A stretch of 32,000 nucleotides of DNA from NCBI GenBank assembly GCA_030167145.1, contig CP126532.1, forward strand, positions 3,780,001-3,812,000, read 5' to 3'. Every line of letters starts with the position of its first letter. The first letter of the stretch is position 1. The translations under genes and the position numbers were made by a program. Shown here in pieces: positions 2,514 to 15,375 of the stretch. The notes under the pieces were generated by a model, which was not told the origin of the DNA, ran no database searches, and saw only the letters and a list, made by a program, of their open reading frames with translations. The stretch is from Ktedonobacterales bacterium (lineage in GTDB: Bacteria; Chloroflexota; Ktedonobacteria; Ktedonobacterales; JADMIN01).

Positions 2514-2792
2514 ATGAAGTACACGATTGAGCTACCTGACGATGTTGCGGCGCGCTTGCGCCAGCTCGCCGAGGAGCGCCACCAAACGCCGGAAGACATG
2601 ATCGCGGGATTGGTGGATCACGAAGTTGCGACTACGACTACCGCGCCTCAGGCCACCAGGGATAATCCTCTTGGCGTGAATCCACTCGCAAAATACGTTG
2701 GGCAGTTTACCGCCGATGTGCCAGACATCACGCAGCGACACGACTACTACATTGCCGAGGAAGCGATGGGAGCGCGTGATGACGGCCAATGA
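2514..2792 (+). CDS. Small ribbon-helix-helix (CopG/antitoxin-like) protein
   Basis: The 92-aa ORF has a GGGAGA RBS upstream of the ATG. The N-terminus MKYTIELPDDVAARLRQLAEERHQTPEDMIAGLV has a typical RHH strand-helix-helix pattern. The C-terminal tail (..DITQRHDYYIAEEAMG) resembles tails of small antitoxin-like proteins. The family call is from pattern only. Confidence 0.55.
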   Translation: MKYTIELPDDVAARLRQLAEERHQTPEDMIAGLVDHEVATTTTAPQATRDNPLGVNPLAKYVGQFTADVPDITQRHDYYIAEEAMGARDDGQ

Positions 2793-2875
2793 AAGCGACT
2801 GGACGCTCTAATTCCCTCCTGCCCTGGTCTGCTCCTAGTTGCACATCTTCCCAGCGCTATCCCCAGGAGATACGT

Positions 2876-3658
2876 ATGCCTGATAGCCCGCAAGCCGAGC
2901 CTGATGCGCTCGCGCTTTCCGCGCTTGGTCCAGCGGACGCACCTAACGCACAGCCACCTGAGTCTATTTCGTTGCTCGTGGTTCCGCGCAGCACGGTCGC
3001 CGATACGTGGGGCTGGCTCTGGAAAGATACGTTGATGCGCGTGCTGCCGTTCGCCGCCGCCGCTGGTGTCTATGCGCGGCTCTCCGGCGAGGGGATGCGC
3101 GCTCTGGGACTCACGCGCGCTGGCTGGCGGCGCGATGTGCTCATCGGAAACGCGGTGGGCATCCCTGCGACCGCCGCTGCCATTGCGTTCCGCCGGTGGG
3201 TCGCGCCGGGCTATCGTTTGCCCACGCCCGCCGATCAGACGCTTCAGACGGTGTTCTACCTCGGCCTCAACGCTCCCGCCGAAGAGTTCTTCTGGCGCGG
3301 TGGTGTGCAGACGCTGGCCATCGCTGGGCTGCTCCGCGTGCCGGTGCTGCGCCGCGCCGCCACGCTCCTCGGCTGGGCGGGCGCTACCGCCGCCTTCGGC
3401 GCATATCACCGCCTCGGCAACTGGAGCTGGCGATCTATCGCGGGCGTCACTGCCGCTGGTGGCCTCTTTGGCGCGGCGTATCTGCTTACTGGCCGCCGCA
3501 GGTCACTGCTGCCCGCGATCATCATCCATGGCTACATGACCGCTGGCTTTCTGAGTTGGGGGGACGCCGCGCTGCACCTGCTCGTCCGGTGGAGGGGTGT
3601 CACCGCCAGGTGGGCTGGCCGTAGCTCCCAATTTGCATCCCGCGCAGCTTCCAGTTGA
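2876..3658 (+). CDS. CPBP family (CAAX protease / Abi-type) intramembrane glutamic endopeptidase
   Basis: The three CPBP signature motifs occur in order within hydrophobic helices: NAPAEEFFWRG (EExxxR), FGAYH (FxxxH) and IIIHGYMTAG (HxxxN/D-like). The open frame begins at 2789, but ATG 2876 has a strong AGGAGA RBS at 2865-2870. The 3' end overlaps the convergent 3600-4664 gene by 59 nt. Confidence 0.8.
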   Translation: MPDSPQAEPDALALSALGPADAPNAQPPESISLLVVPRSTVADTWGWLWKDTLMRVLPFAAAAGVYARLSGEGMRALGLTRAGWRRDVLIGNAVGIPATAAAIAFRRWVAPGYRLPTPADQTLQTVFYLGLNAPAEEFFWRGGVQTLAIAGLLRVPVLRRAATLLGWAGATAAFGAYHRLGNWSWRSIAGVTAAGGLFGAAYLLTGRRRSLLPAIIIHGYMTAGFLSWGDAALHLLVRWRGVTARWAGRSSQFASRAASS

Positions 3659-5746: not shown

Positions 5747-6421
5747 TTGAGCGGTATAGAGCAGTCACTCTTTGAGTTGATACAGCATTGGTATCTCACC
5801 GCTGGATACATGGGCATCGTGCTGGCGATGGCCCTCGAAAGTTGTTGTATTCCGCTGCCCAGCGAGATCGTCATGCCGCTCGCTGGCTACATGGTCTACA
5901 AGTATCCCGAACAATTCTCGCTGCCGGGCGTCGCCATCGCGGGTGCGCTTGGCTGTGTTATCGGCTCTGCCGTCGCCTATGGTATCGGCGCGTCCGGTGG
6001 GCGTCCGTTGCTCCTCAAATATGGCCGCTATATCCTGATTTCCAAGGCGGATTCTGATCGTGCCGACCGCTGGTTCAATCGCCACGGCGCACCTGTGGCC
6101 TTTTTCTCGCGCCTGCTGCCCGTGGTCCGCACGTACATCTCGTTGCCTGCTGGTATCTCGCGCATGCCCTTCGGTACATTCATCCTCTTCACCTTGCTCG
6201 GCTCGCTGCCGTGGACTCTCGCTCTGGCGTTCGTGGGCTATAAGCTCGGCGATAAGATTGACCAGGCTTCCCAGCTTGGCACCATCTTTCATGGGCTGGA
6301 TGTGGTGATTGTGCTGCTGATTCTCGCGGGCATCGCCTACTATATCTATCGCCACATCAAGCACGACCGCCTTGCTCGCGAAGCTGAGGCGCTCGGCAAC
6401 CGTAGCGGCAGCATGCATTAG
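5747..6421 (+). CDS. DedA/SNARE-associated family inner-membrane protein
   Basis: Motifs seen are YMGIVLAMALESCCIPLPSEIVMPLAGY.., ..GRPLLLKYGRYI.., ..RWFNRHGAPVAFFSRLLPVVRTYISLPAGISRM. TTG 5747 is in frame with the track ORF 5588 and is preceded by GGGAGA at 5735-5740. The first 53 track residues are Arg/His-rich and non-membrane-like. Confidence 0.8.
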   Translation: MSGIEQSLFELIQHWYLTAGYMGIVLAMALESCCIPLPSEIVMPLAGYMVYKYPEQFSLPGVAIAGALGCVIGSAVAYGIGASGGRPLLLKYGRYILISKADSDRADRWFNRHGAPVAFFSRLLPVVRTYISLPAGISRMPFGTFILFTLLGSLPWTLALAFVGYKLGDKIDQASQLGTIFHGLDVVIVLLILAGIAYYIYRHIKHDRLAREAEALGNRSGSMH

Positions 6422-6438: not shown

Positions 6439-6461
6439 CCCCTTCCCTCGTAGGGAAGGGG
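6439..6461. repeat. GC-rich hairpin CCCCTTCCC-tcgta-GGGAAGGGG
   Basis: This is a perfect 9-bp inverted repeat between the convergent dedA-like and 6611-7732 genes. Its sequence is related to the hairpin at 10155-10184. Confidence 0.5.
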
Positions 6462-6547
6462 ACCACAGAGATGTAACCCCGGCCATGACGGGCGTCCACC
6501 GGACGCCCCTACGAGGAATAGCAACCCTTGGAAGGGGTGAGCGAACG

Positions 6548-6586
6548 GTAGGGCGGAGAGGAATATCCGCCCTACTGCTATTTCTT
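6548..6586 (+). terminator. Rho-independent-type terminator downstream of the dedA-like gene
   Basis: The stem GTAGGGCGG (6548-6556) pairs with CCGCCCTAC (6567-6575). It is followed by the T-rich tail TGCTATTTCTT. Confidence 0.55.
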
Positions 6587-6610: not shown

Positions 6611-7732
6611 CTAGCGTACCGTGTGCGGGGTGGTTTGCGCGCGGAGCCTGCGGCGCTCGCGCAACATCAGCCACACCAGCACGCCGCCTATGAGCAGCAC
6701 TGGCGCAATCGCCAGCATTACCTGCGGTGTGCCCAGCGGCAGGCGCGGCAGCCAGCCGGGCAGCGTCCCCGCGCTCGACACGATAGCCATCGGCGATGTG
6801 CCGAAGCGCGCCAGTTTGATCACGCCGTCGGTGGTGACGCTCAGATCGTAGGTGACGGCATCATCTGGCGCGTCGAGTGAGAGGTATGTCAGCCAGCCAT
6901 CGGAGCGCACCCAACTCATATTTCTGTCGGTCGAAAGGTCATGGTAGAGCGTGGGGTTCATACGCTCCTGGAACGCGACTTTGAAGCCTGTCGCGCCAGG
7001 GACATCGGAGCCGACGGCAGATTGACCCGCCATCGCGGCCACTTCGCTGGTGTTTAGCGGCTGATCGGTCAGGAAGTAGAGGTCGGCGTGAACCTGCTGG
7101 CCGTCCAGCGCCAAGACTTCCAGCGGTACCCACGGATGCGCGGTCCGCATGGTAATCAGCACCGGCGCGCCGTCGCCCGATAGCTGTCCGCGCGCCTGCG
7201 CCGCCGCCGTATCGTACTTGGCCGCCATGAAGATTGGGCTGCCCTGCGCGTAGATCAGCAGATGCGCGCGGGTATCGCCATCCACCGCGAAACCGTTCTG
7301 CGCGCACCAATCGAGCACGGCCTGCCCGCTGCCGCGCAGCACGGTGATGTTGAGCGCCTCGACCTTCACCTGCTGCAATACCTGCGCGGCGCCCGCTGCT
7401 GACGGTACCGCTTCGAAGGCCACATTTCTAGGCAGCGGATGGGTTTCGTTGGCGAGCCGTTGCAGCGTCCATGCGCCGCCCTCTTCGATCTTCAGCGGCA
7501 CGGCGGGCAGCGGCACGATCCAGCCCAGGTTCTTCACGTCGCCCTGATAGGTGAAGCTGGTCATGTAGTGTTCGATGCCATCGTGCCAGGCGATCAGCGT
7601 GGCGGCTCGCGAGAGGCGCACCGACCCATTCGGGGCCACCAGCCCACCGCAGGCCAGCGCGGGCACAGACTGCAATACGAAGAGACACGCGACAACGGCG
7701 ATAGGCAACAACCGCAGACGAGAGATACGCAT
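6611..7732 (-). CDS. Secreted, C-terminally membrane-anchored protein, DUF2330-like
   Basis: A signal peptide (MRISRLRLLPIAVVACLFVLQSVPALA) is followed by CGGLVAPNGSV..IAWHDGIEHYMTSF..GWIVPLPAVP. A C-terminal TM helix (VMLAIAPVLLIGGVLVWLML) precedes an RERRR stop-transfer. ATG 7732 has a GGAA/AAAGG RBS, and the track start 7825 adds 31 polar residues. The family name is from memory. Confidence 0.6.
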   Translation of the reverse strand: MRISRLRLLPIAVVACLFVLQSVPALACGGLVAPNGSVRLSRAATLIAWHDGIEHYMTSFTYQGDVKNLGWIVPLPAVPLKIEEGGAWTLQRLANETHPLPRNVAFEAVPSAAGAAQVLQQVKVEALNITVLRGSGQAVLDWCAQNGFAVDGDTRAHLLIYAQGSPIFMAAKYDTAAAQARGQLSGDGAPVLITMRTAHPWVPLEVLALDGQQVHADLYFLTDQPLNTSEVAAMAGQSAVGSDVPGATGFKVAFQERMNPTLYHDLSTDRNMSWVRSDGWLTYLSLDAPDDAVTYDLSVTTDGVIKLARFGTSPMAIVSSAGTLPGWLPRLPLGTPQVMLAIAPVLLIGGVLVWLMLRERRRLRAQTTPHTVR

Positions 7733-7882
7733 CGTGATGGTTCCTTTCCCCTTCGGCTCGTTTGGAAGGTTCGCATCAACGACGCGCCTGCCATCGCGAA
7801 AGTTCCCCTTGTCTCTTTCGCGCATCGCATGCTAAACTGCAAGTACACAGCCGCACCCACAGCCATCCTGTATCGCTGCTAT

Positions 7883-7923
7883 CACTGGTGGGGCAGACAT
7901 TCTTGTCTGCATCGCTGGTGGGG
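7883..7923. repeat. Hairpin repeat copy A: CACTGGTGGGG-[GCAGACA ttct TGTCTGC]-at-CGCTGGTGGGG
   Basis: A perfect 7-bp stem (7893-7899 with 7904-7910) is flanked by direct repeats CACTGGTGGGG (7883-7893) and CGCTGGTGGGG (7913-7923). It lies in the 5' region of the TIR gene. Confidence 0.7.
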
Positions 7924-7958
7924 TGTTTGCTGCGAGATTCCCGTTCTTCGGAGACGAC

Positions 7959-10022
7959 ATGACCAGTATCTTCATCTCTTACCGCCGCGCCGACAGCGAA
8001 ACCATTGTTGGCCGCATCTATGACCACCTGAAGAATCGCTATGGCAAAGAGGCCATTTTCAAAGATGTGGACAACATTGATCCCGGTGAGGATTTCGAGC
8101 AAAAAATCCAGGCGATCATCCAGCAGTGCGCTGTGCAACTGGCCATCATCGGCCCGCGCTGGCTGGATATGCCCAGCGCGAAGACCCCAGGCCAGCGTCG
8201 TCTGGATGAACCCAAAGACCCCGTGCTGCTGGAAATCGAAGCCGCTATCAACGCGGGCATCGTCATCATTCCACTGCTGGTGGAGCGCGCCACCATGCCC
8301 GATATTGATCGCCTGCCCGATAGCATCAGTGCCCTCGCCGTCCGCAATGGCCGCCCCATCCGTAACGACCCCGACTTCGAGGACGACATCGGCAGCCTGT
8401 TCGCCGCGCTCGACCGCTACTTGCAGCATGTCCACGCGCCCGCCGATGCCACGCCCGCCACATTTGCGGGCAACCCGCAGGCGGCGCTCGTGCGCCAGAT
8501 GCTGCCCGACATGGAGCGCGCCTTTGCCGCCCACGATTGGCAGGTGCTGCTAGATAAAGCCGACTACCTCGCCCGCTATGCGCCCAACGCGCTGCCCGCC
8601 GCACGCTTCGTGACGTGGGGCAACACGCTGCTGGCGGAAAGCGACGTCTCCGGCGCGCGCATGCTGCTCGACGCCGCGCTCGGCCTGAACGCGAACGGCG
8701 TCGCCAGCCGCCCTTTCACGCCCGCTGATGTGCCCGCACTGCGGGTTGCCGCGCAGGTACACGATCAGAGCGGCGAACAGCCACTCGCCGCGACGCTACT
8801 CAAAGACGCCCTGGCCCTCGTCGCGGATTCCGACCAGCGACTCGCCATCCTGCGCGAGTATCTCCTCGTGCTGCAACAGACTGAGCAATGGAACGACCTG
8901 CTGCGCCGCACCGATGAGGCGTTGCGAATCGCGCCCGGCGACCCAACCATCGTGGCGCTGCGTGTTGATGCGCTCGCCAAATTACGGCGCACCGATGAAG
9001 CGCTCGCGTTTATTCGCGAGTTCGCCAACCGCCCCGATGCCACCACCGCCGGGCAGCTCGCCCTCGCTCGCGTCCTTGCCGAACAGAGCAACCCTGCGGA
9101 GGCGTGGACTATCTTGCAAGCCGCCATGCACAATCCCAATGCCCCGGCGAGCGTCGCCCAGGTCCGCGCCAAACTCTTCCCGCCGCCCAGCGTCGCCCCG
9201 CGATTGGCGCACCTTGGCTACACCGGCCACAATGTCGCCGGAGCGCAATTCCTCATCGCCCCGCTCTGCCAGGTGCCCGCCGGACTCTTCCGCATGGGTA
9301 GCGACCCACGCCAGGACCGCGACGCCCAGGCGAGCGAACAGCCCGATGTGCCGTTTACGACCCATCAGGACCGCGTAGCCCAGGCGAGCGCGCAACCCGC
9401 GCACGACGTGACCTTGCCCGCCTACTGGATTGGGCGCTACCCTGTCACCGTCGCCGAATACGCCTGCTTTGTCCGCTCTGGCCACACCCCTGGCGACTGG
9501 GCCAGCCAGCAGAGCAAACTCGACCATCCCGTCGTCGCCGTCTCCTGGCACGACGCCATCGCCTACGCCGCCTGGCTCGCCACACTCACTGGCCAGCCCT
9601 GGCGCCTGCCTACCGAGGCCGAATGGGAAAAAGCGGCCCGTTGGGATCCCCAGCGCCGCGCCAGCCGTCTCTATCCTTGGGGCGACACCTTCGACGAGTC
9701 CCGCGCCAACATCTACGTGGGCGGCAAGAACGGCACGACGCCGGTGGGCAGCTACCCCACCGGCGCCAGCCCCTGCGGCGCGCAGGATATGGCGGGCAAC
9801 GTCTGGGAATGGAATAGCTCGCTCTACAAACCCTACCCGTATTCTAGTACAGATGGGCGTGAGAATCCGGACAATTCCGTTGAAAATCGTGTGCTGCGCG
9901 GCGGCTCGTGGGGCGACCTCGCCCCCAAAGCGCGCGCGGCGTACCGCAACAACCTCTGGCCAGACTACGCCAACGGCTACGATGGTTTCCGCCTAGCTCT
10001 GTCTGCGGGGGCTGGTTCATAA
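7959..10022 (+). CDS. TIR domain / TPR-like helical repeat / FGE-sulfatase (SUMF1-like) domain fusion protein
   Basis: The N-terminus SIFISYRRADSETIVGRIYDHL..AIFKDVDNIDPGEDF..DPVLLEIEAAI is TIR_2-like. The middle region is Leu/Ala-rich helical repeats. The C-terminus carries FRMGSD..YWIGRYPVTVAEYACFV..HPVVAVSWHDAIAYAAWL..WRLPTEAEWEKAARW..YPWGD..DMAGNVWEWNSS..RVLRGGSWGD..GFRLA. ATG 7959 has a GGAGA RBS at 7950-7954, and the track start 7923 is 12 codons upstream. Confidence 0.85.
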   Translation: MTSIFISYRRADSETIVGRIYDHLKNRYGKEAIFKDVDNIDPGEDFEQKIQAIIQQCAVQLAIIGPRWLDMPSAKTPGQRRLDEPKDPVLLEIEAAINAGIVIIPLLVERATMPDIDRLPDSISALAVRNGRPIRNDPDFEDDIGSLFAALDRYLQHVHAPADATPATFAGNPQAALVRQMLPDMERAFAAHDWQVLLDKADYLARYAPNALPAARFVTWGNTLLAESDVSGARMLLDAALGLNANGVASRPFTPADVPALRVAAQVHDQSGEQPLAATLLKDALALVADSDQRLAILREYLLVLQQTEQWNDLLRRTDEALRIAPGDPTIVALRVDALAKLRRTDEALAFIREFANRPDATTAGQLALARVLAEQSNPAEAWTILQAAMHNPNAPASVAQVRAKLFPPPSVAPRLAHLGYTGHNVAGAQFLIAPLCQVPAGLFRMGSDPRQDRDAQASEQPDVPFTTHQDRVAQASAQPAHDVTLPAYWIGRYPVTVAEYACFVRSGHTPGDWASQQSKLDHPVVAVSWHDAIAYAAWLATLTGQPWRLPTEAEWEKAARWDPQRRASRLYPWGDTFDESRANIYVGGKNGTTPVGSYPTGASPCGAQDMAGNVWEWNSSLYKPYPYSSTDGRENPDNSVENRVLRGGSWGDLAPKARAAYRNNLWPDYANGYDGFRLALSAGAGS

Positions 10023-10087
10023 TGCGAGCGGGTGGTTGAAATCGCGCCTTTGTGGTGTGCGGCCGCGAAACCCGCCGTCGTGGGTTT

Positions 10088-10107
10088 GGGACAGACAGGT
10101 GTCCGCC
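10088..10107. repeat. Hairpin repeat copy B (GGGACAGACAGGTGTCCGCC)
   Basis: Its reverse complement GGCGGACAcctgTCTGTCCC matches copy D (GGCGGACAttgcTGTCTGCC) in pheT. It lies in the TIR-gene/pheT convergent intergenic region. It is preceded by an AAACCC..GGGTTT hairpin. Confidence 0.55.
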
Positions 10108-10154
10108 GTAAAAAGTAAAAGTACATGATGGCCGAGAGCTTGTCACGTCAAAAG

Positions 10155-10184
10155 GGCCCCCTCACCGCGAAGGGGAAGGGGGCC
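10155..10184. terminator. GC-rich hairpin at the convergent junction (candidate bidirectional terminator)
   Basis: GGCCCCCT (10155-10162) pairs with AGGGGGCC (10177-10184). It lies 17 nt beyond the pheT stop. The motif CCCCTxCC..GGGGAAGGGGG is related to 6439-6461. Confidence 0.5.
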
Positions 10185-10200
10185 AAAGATGGGGTACTCG

Positions 10201-12831
10201 CTACCCGCGTAGCGCCGCGCCAAGCTGCTGCTTCAGCGCGGCGATGATGGCCGATTGCGCTGCTTCGATCTCCGCGTCGGTCAGCGTGCGCTCGGTGGAC
10301 TGGTAGGTGAGCGTGTAGGCCAGGCTCTTCTTGCCTTCGGGGATGCCCTGTCCCGTGTAGACATCGAAGAGACTGACCTGGCGCAGCAGCGCGCCGCCGC
10401 TGGCGCGGATCACCCCAGCTACGTCGGCCTGCGGCGTTGCGGCGCCCACTACGACGGCCAGATCGCGTTGCGCGGCGGGATAGCGCGCAATCGGCGTGTA
10501 TGGCACGACTGCTGGCACCGCCGGGAACAGCCGCTCTAGATCGAGTTCCATCAGGTAGGTGCGTTTGGGCAGATCGAAGCGCTCCGCCACCTCCGGGTGG
10601 ACCTCGCCCAGCACCGCCGTCGCCACCCAGCGACGCGCATCATCCGCCGTCACTGCGCGGCCCCCTAGTATGGCGCTCCCGTCCGCTGGCGTCGCCACGG
10701 CCACCTCTAGCAGCGCGCAGCGCCCCGGATGGAATGTCGGCGTGCGCGTCGGCGTGAAGCGATAGTCGGAAACCTTCAGCGCGTGCAGCAGCGTTTCGGC
10801 TATGCCCTTCAGATCGAAGAAGTCGGCGTCGCGCTCCTCGCCCAGCCAGCCGCGCGCCAGCGGCCCGCTGATCGCTACGCCCAACGTGCGGCGCTCCTGC
10901 GGCAGCCCGTCGCCATCGGCGAGCGCGGGCGTGGGGATGTAGCGGCGGCCAATCTCGAAGAACCACAGCCCGGTATCTGTGTGCTTGGCGTTCTCGCGCA
11001 CTACTCCCAGCAAGCCCGACATCAGCGTCAGCCGCAGCGCTTCGAGGTCCACGCTCAGCGGATTCGCCAGGGTGATCGCGGGCAGCTTCGCCGCGATGGC
11101 TTCGATCTGCCGCCGTTCGCTGGTCCGGCTGCTTTCTGGTGTGGTGGGTTGCTCCTCGCTGACAGACAAGAATGTCTGTCCTACTGATAGTGGGGCGGAC
11201 ATTGCTGTCTGCCCGGCCACTGGCGCGGTCAGTAAGAGTTCTTCGCCCGGCTGGGTGCCGAGCAGCAGCTTCGCCATTGCCGCGCGGCTGGTCAATGTGT
11301 AGTTCACTGCCTCGGTCAGCCCGGCGCCCACCAGGATCTCACGCACGCGATGCTCGCGTTCCGGCCAGCTATCGCGGAGCGGCTCTGGCAGCGGCCCCAC
11401 GGGAATCGTGCTGGCGATGCGGTCGTAGCCGACAATGCGCGCCACCTCCTCGACGAGGTCCGCGCCCTCCTCCACATCGCCGCGCCATGTGGGCACGGTC
11501 ACGTCCAGCACGTCATCCGCGCCGTCCGGAGGCTCCGCCACGCCGAAGCCGAGCGCACGCAGGCTGGCGAGCACCTCGTTGCGCGTCACCGGCATTCCGG
11601 TGAGCCATTCGACCAGCGACGGCTTGAAGGCGATGCGCCGTTCAGCAATTGGGTTCGGGTAGAAGTCCACCCGCCCGCGCGCCACCGTGCCGCCCGCGAG
11701 TTCGGTGAGCAGTTGCGCTGAGCGGTCAATCGCCACCGCCGTCAGCTCGATGTCGGGATTCTTCTCGAAGCGCCCCGACGATTCGGTGCGCAGCGCCAGC
11801 GCCACTGATGTGCGCCGCACGTTCACTGGATTGAAGTGCGCGGCTTCCAATAGCACGCTCGTCGTGGCCGCCGAGACCTCCACGCGCTCGCCGCCGAAGA
11901 TGCCCGCGATCACGTTCGGCCCAGCAGGATCAGTGATGAGTTGCATCTCGCTAGTCAGGTGGCGCGTCACGCCGTCCAATGTGGTCAGCGTCTCGCCTGG
12001 CTCCGCGCGCCGCACGATGATCGTATGCTCGGCAACCTTGTCGTAGTCGAAGGCGTGCAGCGGCTGCCCAAGTTCCAGCATTACGTAGTTGGTGATGTCC
12101 ACGACGTTGTTGATGGGGCGCATGCCCGCCAGCGTGAGGCGATCCTGCATCCACTCCGGCGACGGCCCGATCTTCACGTCGCGCACCACACGCGCGGTGT
12201 AGCGTGGGCAGAGGTTGGCGTCGCGCACCTCCAGCTTCATCAGGTCGCTGGTTGGCGTGCCCTTCTCCTTCACCGCGATTTTCGGCGGGCGCAGCTTCTG
12301 TCCGGTGAACGCCGCTACTTCGCGCGCCACGCCGACTATGCAGAAGAGATCGCCCCGGTGCGCCTTGATGTCCAGGTCAATCACCGCCTCGCCGATTATT
12401 TTGCCCAGCGGCACGCCCAGCGGCGTCTCCGGCGGCAGAATCAGGATGCCCTGATGGTCGTCGCTGATGCCTAGCTCGCGCGGCGAGCAGAGCATGCCCT
12501 CGGAGAGTACGCCCATTGCCTTCTTCGGCTGGATGGTGATGTCGCCGACCTTCGCGCCAACCTTCGCCAGCGGGACGCGGTCGTGCAGCTTGATGTTCGG
12601 CGCGCCGCAGACCACGCTGAACTCTTCGGTTCCGGTGGTCACGCGGGTCGCGCTCAGGTGGTCCGAGCCTTTGACCTTTTGCAGCCAGACGATTTCCGCC
12701 GTCACGATGTCCGGCCAGCCGTAGTCTATCCGGTCCACTTCCAGCCCGTGCATCGTCAGTTCATGGGCCAGCTCTTCGGGACCAAGCTCCAGCTTCACGT
12801 AGTCTTTTAGCCACGAGTACGGTATTCGCAT
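10201..12831 (-). CDS. pheT: Phenylalanine--tRNA ligase beta subunit
   Basis: MRIPYSWLKDYV.. is the canonical PheT N-terminus. The tRNA-binding, B3/4, B5 and C-terminal anticodon-binding-like regions are recognisable. A GGAGGA RBS precedes ATG 12831. The gene lies downstream of pheS. Confidence 0.95.
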   Translation of the reverse strand: MRIPYSWLKDYVKLELGPEELAHELTMHGLEVDRIDYGWPDIVTAEIVWLQKVKGSDHLSATRVTTGTEEFSVVCGAPNIKLHDRVPLAKVGAKVGDITIQPKKAMGVLSEGMLCSPRELGISDDHQGILILPPETPLGVPLGKIIGEAVIDLDIKAHRGDLFCIVGVAREVAAFTGQKLRPPKIAVKEKGTPTSDLMKLEVRDANLCPRYTARVVRDVKIGPSPEWMQDRLTLAGMRPINNVVDITNYVMLELGQPLHAFDYDKVAEHTIIVRRAEPGETLTTLDGVTRHLTSEMQLITDPAGPNVIAGIFGGERVEVSAATTSVLLEAAHFNPVNVRRTSVALALRTESSGRFEKNPDIELTAVAIDRSAQLLTELAGGTVARGRVDFYPNPIAERRIAFKPSLVEWLTGMPVTRNEVLASLRALGFGVAEPPDGADDVLDVTVPTWRGDVEEGADLVEEVARIVGYDRIASTIPVGPLPEPLRDSWPEREHRVREILVGAGLTEAVNYTLTSRAAMAKLLLGTQPGEELLLTAPVAGQTAMSAPLSVGQTFLSVSEEQPTTPESSRTSERRQIEAIAAKLPAITLANPLSVDLEALRLTLMSGLLGVVRENAKHTDTGLWFFEIGRRYIPTPALADGDGLPQERRTLGVAISGPLARGWLGEERDADFFDLKGIAETLLHALKVSDYRFTPTRTPTFHPGRCALLEVAVATPADGSAILGGRAVTADDARRWVATAVLGEVHPEVAERFDLPKRTYLMELDLERLFPAVPAVVPYTPIARYPAAQRDLAVVVGAATPQADVAGVIRASGGALLRQVSLFDVYTGQGIPEGKKSLAYTLTYQSTERTLTDAEIEAAQSAIIAALKQQLGAALRG
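11136..11228. repeat. Hairpin repeat copies C and D embedded in frame in pheT
   Basis: Copy C is GACAGACA-agaa-TGTCTGTC (11161-11180), a perfect 8-bp stem. Copy D is GGCGGACA-ttgc-TGTCTGCC (11194-11213). They are flanked by CTGGTGTGGTGGG (11136-11148), CTGATAGTGGGG (11184-11195) and CCACTGGCGCGG (11217-11228). On the minus strand they encode ..VAGQTAMSAPLSVGQTFLSVSEEQ.. of PheT. Confidence 0.7.
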
Positions 12832-12845
12832 GATGTCATCCTCCT

Positions 12846-13883
12846 CTATACCGTCCAGCGCCCGCGCGCGATGTTTACCAGATCCGCGACGATGCCGAAG
12901 GCCGTCTGCCCCGGCCCGCCGTCGCCTTCGATCAGCGTGAGGTCGCGCATCGTATCCGTATGCAGCAGCAGCGCCGTTTCGCCGGGAACCAGCGTCGCGA
13001 AGACGTTGCTCAGCGGCAGCGCGGCCAGTTCGACGCGCGCACGCACCGCATCGCCGTCGCGTTCGACTACGGCGAGTTGCTTCAGCGCATGGCCCGGCGG
13101 TAGCGCCGCGTGCGCCTGGCGCATCGCCTCCGCGCCCAGTCCGTCGCGCACCACGTCGCCCGGCCGCAGGTCCGCGCCCATCAGCACATTGGCTACTACT
13201 GTCGCCTTCACCGCCGCGTCCCAGCCTTCCAGGTCGTTGCTAGGGTCCGCCTCGGCGATACCGATTTTCTGTGCGCCCGCGACCGCCTCTTCCAGCGATT
13301 CGCCGCGCGCCATGCGCCCCAATACGTAGTTGCTGGTGCCGTTCATCGGGCCGCGGAAGCCCTCGATGCGCGTGGCGGGCAGCGACGCCTCGGACATGCT
13401 GAAAATCGGCGTGCCATCCATCACCGTGGACTCGAAGCGCAGCGCCACGCCATGCTCTGCCGCCAGCGCCCGCAGTTCACGATAGGCGTAGGCAATCGGT
13501 CCCTTGTTGGCCGTGACGACATGCCGGCCAGCGTTCAGCGCGGCGCGCACGTGGTCTATCGCGGGCAGCCCCGACTGCGGATTCAGCGTGGTAATCTCGA
13601 TCAGCGCGTCCGCCGGGCAGGTGGCGGCGAAGGCGAGCGCGTCGCCCGCGAAGGGCTGCGCGCCCGCTGGCAGCGCGCCGCTCGTCGGCCATCCGCTGGC
13701 GGCCAGCGCCGCCGGGGTGATGCCCTCCGGCGCGGACCAGCCCCCGGCGGAGCGCGTAAACGCGCCGGTGTAGCAGACTTCCAGGTCATATCGCTCGCGC
13801 AGGTCGCGCTCTTTCTCGGCGAGCATCGTGACTAGCGCGCGGCCCACATTGCCGAAACCCAAACATGCCAGACGCAGGCGCAT
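12846..13883 (-). CDS. Homoserine dehydrogenase family protein (no ACT domain)
   Basis: MRLRLACLGFGNVGRAL is a Rossmann GxGxxG motif. VVTANKGP and GIAEADPSNDLEGWDAAVKATVVANV are characteristic Hom motifs. ATG 13883 has an AGGAGA RBS, and the track start 13946 is 21 codons upstream. The stop is 14 nt before the pheT start. Confidence 0.8.
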   Translation of the reverse strand: MRLRLACLGFGNVGRALVTMLAEKERDLRERYDLEVCYTGAFTRSAGGWSAPEGITPAALAASGWPTSGALPAGAQPFAGDALAFAATCPADALIEITTLNPQSGLPAIDHVRAALNAGRHVVTANKGPIAYAYRELRALAAEHGVALRFESTVMDGTPIFSMSEASLPATRIEGFRGPMNGTSNYVLGRMARGESLEEAVAGAQKIGIAEADPSNDLEGWDAAVKATVVANVLMGADLRPGDVVRDGLGAEAMRQAHAALPPGHALKQLAVVERDGDAVRARVELAALPLSNVFATLVPGETALLLHTDTMRDLTLIEGDGGPGQTAFGIVADLVNIARGRWTV

Positions 13884-13992
13884 GTTATTTCTCCTGAAAC
13901 CAACAGGGCGAACGCTCGTGTTTCGCCCAGCAATAGCCATTGCCAACCATGATTATCCCTGGCCTTCAGGCTGGGAAGAAACGATTACACGG

Positions 13993-15042
13993 CTAGGCGA
14001 ACTGGCGCAGGAAGCGCAGATCATTGCCAGAGAACAAGCGGATGTCGTCCACGCCGTAGCGCAGCATGGCGATGCGCTCGATGCCCAGCCCGAAGGCGAA
14101 GCCGCGATATGTCGCCGGATCGTAGCCGACGCCGCGCAGCACCTTCGGATGCACCATGCCGGAGCCGCCCATCTCCAGCCAGCCGCTATACTTGCAGACA
14201 CGGCAGCCCGCGCCATCGCAGTTGATGCAGTCCATATCGAACTCGGCGCTTGGCTCGGTGAAGGGGAAGTAACTGGGGCGGAAACGCACCTTGCGCTCCG
14301 CGCCGAACATCTCGCGGGCGAAGCGCTCGACCACGCCGCGCAGATCGGACATGGTGCAGGTCTCATCAATCAGCAGCCCCTCCACCTGGTGGAACGCCGC
14401 TTCATGGCTGGCGTCAATCGCCTCGTTGCGGTAGACGCGGCCCGGCACGATGGCGCGCACCGGCGGCTGCATCTGTTCCATGATGCGAATCTGGTTGTTC
14501 GAGGTCTGCGTGCGCAGTAGGATCTGCCCCGGCACGATCCAGAAGGTATCCTGCATATCGCGGGCGGGGTGGTCCTGCGGGATATTGAGCGCCTGGAAGT
14601 TGTAGTAATCGGTCTCTACTTCCGGCCCGTCGTAGACCTGGAAGCCCATCTGGCTGAAGATGCGCCCGATGTCGCGGATGGTCTGCGAGATGGGATGGAT
14701 GTGCCCGCGTGGCGTCATGCGCCCCGGCAGCGTCACGTCGAGCCGCTCGCGTTCCAACGCGCCGCTCTGCTCTGCCGCTTTCAGCGCGGCTTTGCGCTGT
14801 TCCAGCAGGCCTTCCAGTTCATTTTTGACGGTGTTCGCAGCCTGGCCGACGGCTTTGCGCTGCTCGCCAGGCAGCTTGCCCAGCCCCTTGAGGATACCGG
14901 TTAGCTCGCCGCGCTCGCGGCCCAGAAAGCGCGTGCGCCACTCGTCCAGCCCCTCCGCTGTTGCGATGGTCGCCAGTTCCGCAATCGCGCGCTCACGCAA
15001 TCCGGCGAGCGCCTGTTCTTCCTCGGTTCGCGCTGTCGCCAT
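13993..15042 (-). CDS. pheS: Phenylalanine--tRNA ligase alpha subunit
   Basis: Class II aaRS motifs are present: HPISQTIRDI, DHPARDMQDTFW, PGRVYRNE..DASHEAAFHQVEGL and GFAFGLGIERIAMLRYGVDDIRLF. ATG 15042 has a GGAGG RBS. The track start 15180 would read through the T-box terminator. Confidence 0.95.
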   Translation of the reverse strand: MATARTEEEQALAGLRERAIAELATIATAEGLDEWRTRFLGRERGELTGILKGLGKLPGEQRKAVGQAANTVKNELEGLLEQRKAALKAAEQSGALERERLDVTLPGRMTPRGHIHPISQTIRDIGRIFSQMGFQVYDGPEVETDYYNFQALNIPQDHPARDMQDTFWIVPGQILLRTQTSNNQIRIMEQMQPPVRAIVPGRVYRNEAIDASHEAAFHQVEGLLIDETCTMSDLRGVVERFAREMFGAERKVRFRPSYFPFTEPSAEFDMDCINCDGAGCRVCKYSGWLEMGGSGMVHPKVLRGVGYDPATYRGFAFGLGIERIAMLRYGVDDIRLFSGNDLRFLRQFA

Positions 15043-15074
15043 GACACGCCTCCAGTTCCCGATAGCCCGGTGAA

Positions 15075-15375
15075 AGACAAACAAAAACGGCAGCTTCATC
15101 AGGGACGAAGCTGCCGTATGACTCCGTGGTACCACCCACCTTGGCTGCGCCGCGACGCACTGGCCGCGCACACAACCCACTCGTGCGCCCCGCTAGCGGT
15201 GGGCCTCCGAGGCGCCTACACGCCGGACGCTGTTCGCCGTCCGGTTTCAGTCGCCGGCTCAGGAGTGAACTTCGGTCGGGTACGTCGCGCCTGGGGTCTC
15301 AGTCGGTGGCCCAGGCTCCCTGTGCGGTTCCCCGCCTACTCTCTCCATCATCGCCGAGTCGTCTTCGATTGTCTT
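15075..15375 (-). promoter_or_regulatory. T-box riboswitch leader, Phe (UUC) specifier, with intrinsic terminator
   Basis: Read on the minus strand, four elements appear in order. The GA/K-turn region is GGCGAUGAUGGAGAGAGUAGG (plus strand 15335-15352). The specifier loop is CGAAG-UUC-A, with the codon at 15267-15269. The T-box sequence is CCAAGGUGGGUGGUACCACGGAG (about 15124-15144). The terminator is ACGGCAGCUUC-guccctgau-GAAGCUGCCGU (15087-15117) followed by UUUUUGUUUG. Confidence 0.85.

Follow-up and report, generated by a model that had tools for sequence, protein, structure and literature searches.

The closest described relatives of the repeats studied here are repetitive extragenic palindromes (REPs) that carry a GTAG tag, whose dimers, GT pairing, 'REPtrons' formed with REP-associated tyrosine transposases (RAYTs) and intragenic in-frame copies are documented in PMC3733652 (Di Nocera, De Gregorio & Rocco 2013). 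A REPtron is a RAYT gene flanked by the same REPs (PMC3733652; PMC2817692, Nunvar et al. 2010), and dozens of in-frame REPs are listed in the former paper, often in genes for replication and repair and sometimes in those for tRNA synthetases. We have analysed a 32,000-nucleotide stretch of a Ktedonobacterales bacterium (hereafter the window; assembly GCA_030167145.1, contig CP126532.1, positions 3,780,001 to 3,812,000), in which a first-pass annotation had noticed four short palindromic units of the type CAGACA-N4-TGTCTG around a TIR-domain gene and within pheT. Our results make it probable that the units are REPs with a GTRG tag, and that two of them form a dimer lying in frame in a tolerant loop of PheT, the beta subunit of phenylalanine--tRNA ligase.

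The units of the window were scored with a covariance model trained on 86 copies from unrelated metagenomic and genomic contigs, and their positions, strands and scores are the following:

Copy A, 7888-7911, plus strand: REP reading GTGG + GGCAGACA / TTCT / TGTCTGCA; 38.5 bits, E 4.4e-7.
7915-7923, plus strand: a second CTGGTGGGG, 3 nt past copy A, consisting of tag and first stem bases without the hairpin, i.e. a half-copy or remnant.
Copy C, 11161-11184, minus strand: REP reading GTAGGACAGACATTCTTGTCTGTC on the sense strand of pheT; 43.2 bits, E 4e-8.
Copy D, 11190-11213, plus strand: REP reading GTGGGGCGGACATTGCTGTCTGCC, antisense to pheT; 36.6 bits, E 1.2e-6.
Copy E, 6546-6577, minus strand: REP reading GTAGGGCGGATATTCCTCTCCGCCCT on the minus strand; 26.9 bits, E 1.8e-4.
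Copy B of the first-pass annotation, 10088-10107, no strand assigned: 7.5 bits, E 4.4; unsupported as a member.

In the covariance-model alignment, copies A, C, D and E share one register: a GTRG tag that stays unpaired (copies A and D have GTGG, copies C and E have GTAG) comes before a stem of 8 bp, which is closed by a loop of 4 nt. The order of tag, arms and loop is GTGG-GGCAGACA-TTCT-TGTCTGCA in copy A (plus strand), GTGG-GGCGGACA-TTGC-TGTCTGCC in copy D (plus strand), which has one G-T wobble on the tag strand, and GTAG-GACAGACA-TTCT-TGTCTGTC in copy C (minus strand), while the palindrome of copy E spans both tags (GTAG...CTAC). As an oligonucleotide, the tag-strand hairpin has the sequence GTGGGGCAGACATTCCTGTCTGCC. 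These four good copies lie inside 4.7 kb, and copy C is the top-scoring site of the window against the family model. The motif RGACA-N4-TGTCY occurs three times in the 32-kb window versus 0.06 times expected from dinucleotide-preserving shuffles; copies A, C and D are real and non-random. The first-pass annotation had given the sequences and coordinates of its four units (A to D) correctly, and its assignment of them to one family is confirmed for A, C and D (E 4e-8 to 1e-6). Copy B is at most a badly decayed copy, and with it falls the proposal that the repeats bracket the TIR gene. As for the echoing flanks that had been described around the copies, these 'CTGGTGGGG-like' sequences are mostly the GTGG or GTAG tag of the element itself with its first stem bases; the echoes left over are weak (CTGGTGGGG with one mismatch gives 18 matches vs 8.5 expected). 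A covariance-model scan of the 7.5 kb of the source genome to the left of the window gave zero copies.

Copies C and D lie within pheT and constitute a dimer whose tags face inward across a 5-nt spacer, TGATA (...TGTCTGTC-CTAC-tgata-GTGG-GGCGGACA...), and copy C agrees with the reverse complement of copy D at 18 of 24 positions. The gene and the segment concerned are:

10201-12831, minus strand: pheT, encoding the beta subunit of phenylalanine--tRNA ligase (876 aa); its five Pfam domains are all intact.
11122-11217, minus strand: hypervariable centre of the PheT insertion, residues 539-570, from the alignment and residue mapping.

By residue mapping the dimer encodes PheT residues 540-557, GQTAMSAPLSVGQTFLSV, copy D being read as GQTAMSAPL (residues 540-548) and copy C as VGQTFLSV (residues 550-557). 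Both units are in frame, and the product is long at 876 aa, as had been noted from the sequence at first pass. The identical PheT protein was found in JGI metagenome 3300045419 and in an independent short-read assembly. Residues 517-582 stand in place of ~10 residues of solved PheT structures, in agreement with the earlier suggestion of an insertion. However, this insertion is not new in the present genome, since it is common to all 120 PheT homologues listed, which are 62-75% identical and, where named, are labelled Ktedonobacterales or Chloroflexota, and its flanks are conserved (MAKLL.G..PGEE.LL.APV and RA.ERRQIEAIAERLPAITL). What differs is the centre of the insertion, which has 32 aa here vs a median of 22 and a range of 6-44 among these orthologues, and the C-D peptide is missing from all 119 others. 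The lineage-specific insertion that had been anticipated therefore divides into two parts: the insertion of ~55 aa is ancestral to all the homologues listed, and only its hypervariable centre, ~18-30 aa, is REP-derived. An AlphaFold2 model built from a 49-sequence alignment (mean predicted local distance difference test score, pLDDT, 81.9) gives coil with a pLDDT below 50 at residues 540-566, bounded by predicted helices at 530-535 and 569-582; the segment of the dimer is thus predicted to be disordered.

The 55-nt C-D composite has 81-83% identity to intergenic composites of a Ktedonobacteria metagenome-assembled genome (MAG). Together with the absence of the peptide from the other PheT homologues listed, this sequence comparison argues that a pre-formed dimer was inserted into pheT and that the segment did not originate in place. 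Three orthologues were checked for palindromes at the same spot, and two of them have unrelated ones there, all perfect: a 12-bp palindrome from another family in P0083, and palindromes of 11 bp and 10 bp in P0050. This indicates that the PheT loop took up palindromic DNA more than once, and the loop is permissive. The pheT locus of the closest orthologue checked (P0002, locus L244) gave zero covariance-model matches; its variable loop reads ...GGGCAGGCAGCCGCCAAAGGTGGGGCAGCGGTGAGC..., resembling a tag and 5' arm (GGTGGGGCAG) with the remainder deleted. The resemblance may be coincidental, or the same insertion may have decayed there to a remnant.

Some further observations concern pheT and its loop. 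The PheT loop of other Ktedonobacterales contains, in frame, palindromic repeats of a second family (CCCCTTCCC...GGGAAGGGG or CCCCTCCCC...GGGGAGGGG in type), translated into peptides such as SPFPARGEGGQGVR; its loci outside the window are L242 and L243 (the pheT loops of P0083 and P0050) and L199 (925-970), and within the window it occupies two convergent intergenic regions (6439-6461 and ~10150-10185). PheT residues 716-731 (window ~10639-10686) constitute a second low-confidence segment (ATPADGSAILGGRAVTADDARRW), missing from E. coli-type PheT and with no palindrome seen in it. A homoserine dehydrogenase gene lies between pheS and pheT (window 12846-15099), and the same order is found beside pheT in L242 and L244.

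To describe the family beyond the window, sequence collections were scanned with the pattern GTRGGRCRGACATTNNTGTCYGY, and the consensus of stem and loop is GRCRGACA-TTCY-TGTCYGYC. Matches were obtained in at least 120 metagenome stretches and at least 119 genome stretches, all of the latter from MAGs. Among the matches listed, the MAGs are labelled as more than 10 phyla, with labels that include Planctomycetota, Acidobacteriota, Latescibacterota, Hydrogenedentes, Calditrichota, KSB1, Gemmatimonadota, Ignavibacteria, Chitinophagaceae, Xenobia and Chloroflexota; the host contigs have 38-70% GC, and several MAGs have matches on 3-6 contigs. One Ktedonobacteria MAG has at least six exact copies on four contigs. 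In a set of 295 copies from 239 loci, the two stem pairs left free by the pattern are Watson-Crick pairs in 277 (94%) and 282 copies (96%), where independence would give ~50% and ~70%, and the mismatches comprise 27 G-T pairs, with the wobble on the tag strand, vs 4 A-C. This covariation and the excess of G-T indicate selection for pairing, acting on the tagged strand. CC or CT occupies the free loop positions in 279 of the 295 copies, and the tag is GTGG in 185 and GTAG in 110. Inverted dimers with 5-70 nt between the copies are common among the loci listed (e.g. L010, L017, L019, L047, L103, L112, L120, L128, L145 and L163), and tandem arrays are also present, L159 having an alternating array.

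Half-copies, made of the tag and 5' arm and sometimes the loop, lie beside full copies in L010, L013, L035 and L107; like the bare CTGGTGGGG next to copy A in the window, they could be a trace of copy formation or of decay. The REP is also embedded in longer tandem units, with four copies each of a 157-nt period (L028, 8242-8736) and of a 58-nt period (L055, 37-233). A putative viral contig (L247) has seven exact copies in 10 kb. Overall, the motif was found in 12 stretches from 11 viral contigs out of 2.9 million scanned, none of them with a RAYT, and phages are therefore not an obvious vector. An all-against-all BLASTP comparison of the open reading frames (ORFs) of the first 120 loci revealed no recurrent neighbouring protein. 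Assignment to an Rfam family was also considered and rejected: no family reached its gathering score in the window, and the loci gave only sub-threshold, microRNA-like matches to long doublet hairpins. The searchable literature has no mention of the 16-mers, the 12-mers or the peptides GQTFLS and QTGMSAP.

The pheT dimer is not the only case of a REP in frame. Of the 295 copies, 51 lie in stop-free spans that continue for 80 codons or more in both directions and 244 do not, and a Pfam check of the nine longest spans found domains on either side of the REP in four: those of two Lhr helicases, of DnaE and of a type ISP restriction enzyme. In DnaE the REP lies inside the HHH_6 region, and in a fifth span, a ThiD2-TMP-TENI fusion, the REP is within ThiD2. 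GQTFLS and QTGMSAP recur as peptides of REP-bearing stop-free spans at many unrelated loci, including those of Lhr and DnaE; they are missing from part 1 of 3 of the table of intragenic REPs in PMC3733652. The frame survives because the GTGG form has zero stop codons in all six frames and the GTAG form has one stop, in a single frame.

In other genomes the repeat is linked to RAYT genes. A Pfam scan of long REP-spanning ORFs revealed a Y1_Tnp stretch beside a REP copy in the L064 ORF, and a phmmer search with the L064 protein found RAYT homologues in eight loci. In six loci, REP copies confirmed by the covariance model directly flank a RAYT gene, and since L231 repeats L105 these are five different genes:

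L107 (RAYT gene at 2759-3280): three plus-strand copies upstream and two minus-strand copies downstream, 26 and 11 nt from the RAYT gene.
L159 (Chitinophagaceae MAG): copies 16 and 85 nt from the gene ends, with an alternating array as well.
L064: upstream three copies, of which the nearest is at 21 nt; downstream a half-copy where the gene ends, and a full copy at 266 nt.
L105, whose protein is also that of L231 (Terriglobia MAG): copies only on the 5' side.
L005: a copy overlapping the 3' end of the RAYT gene.

Against the NCBIfam model NF047646 ('REP-associated tyrosine transposase', cut-off 80 bits), the RAYTs score 100, 93, 79 and 71 bits, and they have the HUH motif (D/E-H-x-H) and the tyrosine motif. 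A PDB sequence search with a RAYT gave only weak matches, to ISDra2 TnpA (E 0.004) and E. coli TnpA-REP (4er8, E 0.06). RAYT genes flanked in this way by REPs are the 'REPtron' arrangement that defines REP-RAYT systems. Two loci deserve separate mention. In L064 (3439-4432, on a contig of 38% GC), a complete RAYT-like coding stretch shares the open frame of a type ISP restriction-modification ORF of 1331 aa, whose C-terminal domain it splits, and the same ORF has tandem in-frame REP copies near residue 200 (KQTFLSDPINLSDND, twice). L100 (950-1967) has a RAYT-like gene with its own 23-nt terminal inverted repeats and no flanking REPs, an arrangement that corresponds to the 'TIRYT' of PMC3733652; composite double hairpins that include the REP lie ~300 nt downstream.

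Concerning the location of the copies in the window, one is between convergent genes, one between divergent genes and two are intragenic. Copy E sits between the convergent genes of a VTT-domain protein (5810-6421, plus strand) and a DUF2330 protein (6611-7825, minus strand), and copy A occupies a divergent intergenic region, at 48-71 nt upstream of the ATG with which a TIR-TPR-FGE-sulfatase gene starts; both are ordinary intergenic copies. The gene adjoining copy A (7959-10022) encodes an unusual fusion that has TPR repeats in addition to a TIR domain at the N-terminus and an FGE-sulfatase (SUMF1-like) domain at the C-terminus. At 33 nt from copy E there is another GTAG-tagged hairpin (6490-6513, minus strand; GTAG-GGGCGTCC-ggt-GGACGCCC), and the intergenic region of copy E holds three palindromic elements in a row, resembling a bacterial interspersed mosaic element (BIME) cluster.

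The anatomy of the units, the RAYT genes flanked by them elsewhere and the in-frame copies elsewhere indicate that the first-pass annotation, which had proposed a REP- or MITE-like mobile hairpin able to sit in frame in coding sequence, was right in kind as regards the REP; the MITE half of that proposal (a MITE is a transposable element of the miniature inverted-repeat kind) does not agree with a single hairpin of 24 nt. A probable scenario is as follows. The REP is a non-autonomous element of ~24 nt in which a tag (GTAG or GTGG), unpaired and at the 5' end, is followed by a stem of 8 bp with a TTCY loop; its tagged hairpin, when single-stranded, would be the substrate of the RAYT, an HUH/Y1 transposase. 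By cutting and rejoining REPs in trans, the RAYT could spread them singly or as inverted dimers, and one such dimer, C-D, would have landed in pheT, in the DNA of a disordered surface loop specific to the lineage. With an element that has no stop (GTGG) or nearly none (GTAG) and a loop that tolerates almost any sequence or length, the insertion would have left PheT functional, and the protein would now carry the dimer as GQTAMSAPL-S-VGQTFLSV. The C-D segment is presumably translated and neutral, and RAYT-driven mobility would extend to the source genome.

Several points weigh against this interpretation. RAYT-driven transposition of REPs is still a hypothesis even for E. coli, according to published abstracts. 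In the source genome, the 39.5 kb scanned contain no RAYT gene and no copies beyond the four described, whereas GTAG-tagged REPs usually number more than 100 per genome; a high copy number and a cognate transposase are putative in this genome. Two of the four copies are intragenic and one is between divergent genes, which is atypical for REPs, as these are mostly extragenic and tend to follow the ends of genes, in convergent or same-direction intervals. Finally, no empty-site allele was seen, the nearest orthologue being only 74% identical, and the insertion event is deduced by comparison.

Other explanations can be put forward for the same palindromes. The hairpins might mainly be RNA structures (terminators, 3'-end stabilisers or translation pause sites) co-opted by the host, their spread being secondary, which is compatible with a REP origin. 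Copy E, a 12-bp hairpin followed by the T-rich tail CTATTTCTTA and situated 125 nt past a gene end between convergent genes, speaks for this, as do the G-T wobbles on one strand (27 vs 4), a pattern that PMC3733652 takes as a sign of function at the RNA level. However, a terminator scan found one candidate vs 3.2 in shuffles, and only copy E has the G+C-rich hairpin followed by a T-run of an intrinsic terminator; copies A, C and D lack a T-run. Moreover, C and D point in opposite directions within the middle part of an essential gene, and no single RNA role fits both, while generic RNA hairpins need no conserved unpaired tag or loop, whereas here both are kept across phyla. We consider this explanation unlikely as the principal one, and copy E may also serve as a terminator or mRNA-end hairpin. 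A more specific RNA-level candidate, a CsrA-type GGA-loop site on the complementary strand (ACA-GGAA-UGU), was dropped because conservation covers the whole 12-nt arm and the tag, more than a site of this type requires.

The perfect inverted repeat of the core and the position of copy A, ~50 nt upstream of where translation of the TIR gene starts, would also suit operators of the form CAGACA-N4-TGTCTG, through which a dimeric transcription factor would regulate the TIR gene and pheT. Yet stem positions covary rather than being conserved, so that pairing and not the duplex sequence is what is kept, and neither the asymmetric GTRG tag nor the strand bias of the wobbles fits a symmetric duplex site. 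The element is moreover found thousands of kilobases apart in many phyla beside unrelated genes, RAYT genes are flanked by the same element, and two of the copies are deep in a coding region, which makes regulation of this kind highly improbable. We regard as just as improbable an origin of the PheT segment in place, by slippage or drift in a low-complexity linker, with its likeness to the other units due to chance or convergence. The loop is indeed hypervariable, and that of orthologue P0025 contains a simple tandem peptide repeat, but such an origin would leave unexplained the rank of copy C as the best site of the window (E 4e-8), the resemblance of the whole 55-nt dimer to intergenic composites of another Ktedonobacteria genome, and the recurrence of GQTFLS and QTGMSAP at unrelated loci, with Lhr and DnaE verified by Pfam.

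If GTRG-tagged REPs with a dimer in the PheT loop are thus the appropriate description, the 18-residue stretch of PheT is a translated REP dimer in a tolerant loop, and not a functional motif, an intein or an assembly error. In-frame REPs are a known kind of event and not new, and the current understanding of the REP mechanism is unchanged by the finding. Only two points go further than routine: a hairpin that hardly varies is spread widely among taxa, and the PheT loop has captured palindromes repeatedly. We put forward tentatively, as a possibility we rate below even, that a single broad REP-RAYT lineage extends over more than 10 phyla and 38-70% GC, and that the PheT loop is a recurrent sink for palindromic repeats of different families. 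Such a lineage would imply repeated inter-phylum transfer of transposase and repeat, or a constraint on the hairpin that is independent of the host. The wide spread of the family and its in-frame sites in PheT, DnaE and Lhr offer a case for how REPs move between genomes and how disordered loops absorb mobile DNA.

The pairing of C with D also recalls the REPINs, which were reportedly defined by Bertels and Rainey in 2011 in Pseudomonas as inverted REP doublets that form one long hairpin and exceed singlets in number. An inverted pair separated by a few to tens of nucleotides is shared with them, doublets being common in the family; on the other hand, the spacer of C-D is 5 nt and its arms are imperfect copies of each other. 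Rickettsia palindromic elements (RPEs) are known only from Rickettsia, and their classic representatives exceed the present units in length. What they have in common with the present repeats is the occurrence of palindromic repeats in frame in genes that remain functional, usually in surface-exposed, tolerant regions, an analogy already drawn at first pass. As an identity for the element itself, the RPE was nevertheless rejected: the GTRG tag, the length of 24 nt, the RAYT link and the Ktedonobacterales-type host all differ. RPE-4 and RPE-6 are equated in PMC3733652 with CGTC-tagged repeats. MITEs were likewise set aside on size and tag; the same paper describes them as 70-300 bp long, with terminal inverted repeats of 15-30 bp around a non-coding core, and the repeats studied here share with them a small, non-autonomous, multi-copy and hairpin-forming nature but have a single 24-nt hairpin with an asymmetric tag.

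The nearest match is therefore the GTAG-tagged REP of PMC3733652. Both are short palindromes (20-40 nt) whose stem measures 6-13 bp and whose loop is short, with a tag left unpaired at one end of the hairpin, and copies A, C, D and E all have this form with GTAG or GTGG; the GTGG tag is also known from the GTAG-20 family of Opitutus terrae (PMC3733652). Complementary stem changes, G-T pairs and an organization in singles, inverted dimers and clusters are shared as well, the C-D dimer and other loci being examples here, as is the presence of some copies in frame in genes, including a tRNA synthetase gene. Flanking of RAYT genes by the same REPs is also common to both, and for the present family it was found in other genomes, the 39.5 kb scanned of the source genome having no RAYT gene. 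The difference lies in the stem and loop, GRCRGACA-TTCY-TGTCYGYC, which appear in no searchable paper, although one of the 24 families of PMC3733652 could be the same element. The well-defined family described here, with its cognate RAYT clade, would thus join the catalogue of GTAG-tagged REPs, and with a near-invariant 24-mer in MAGs labelled as more than 10 phyla among the matches listed, its spread, if it is indeed a single lineage, would be far broader than that of the usual REP families, which range from the species to the order level.

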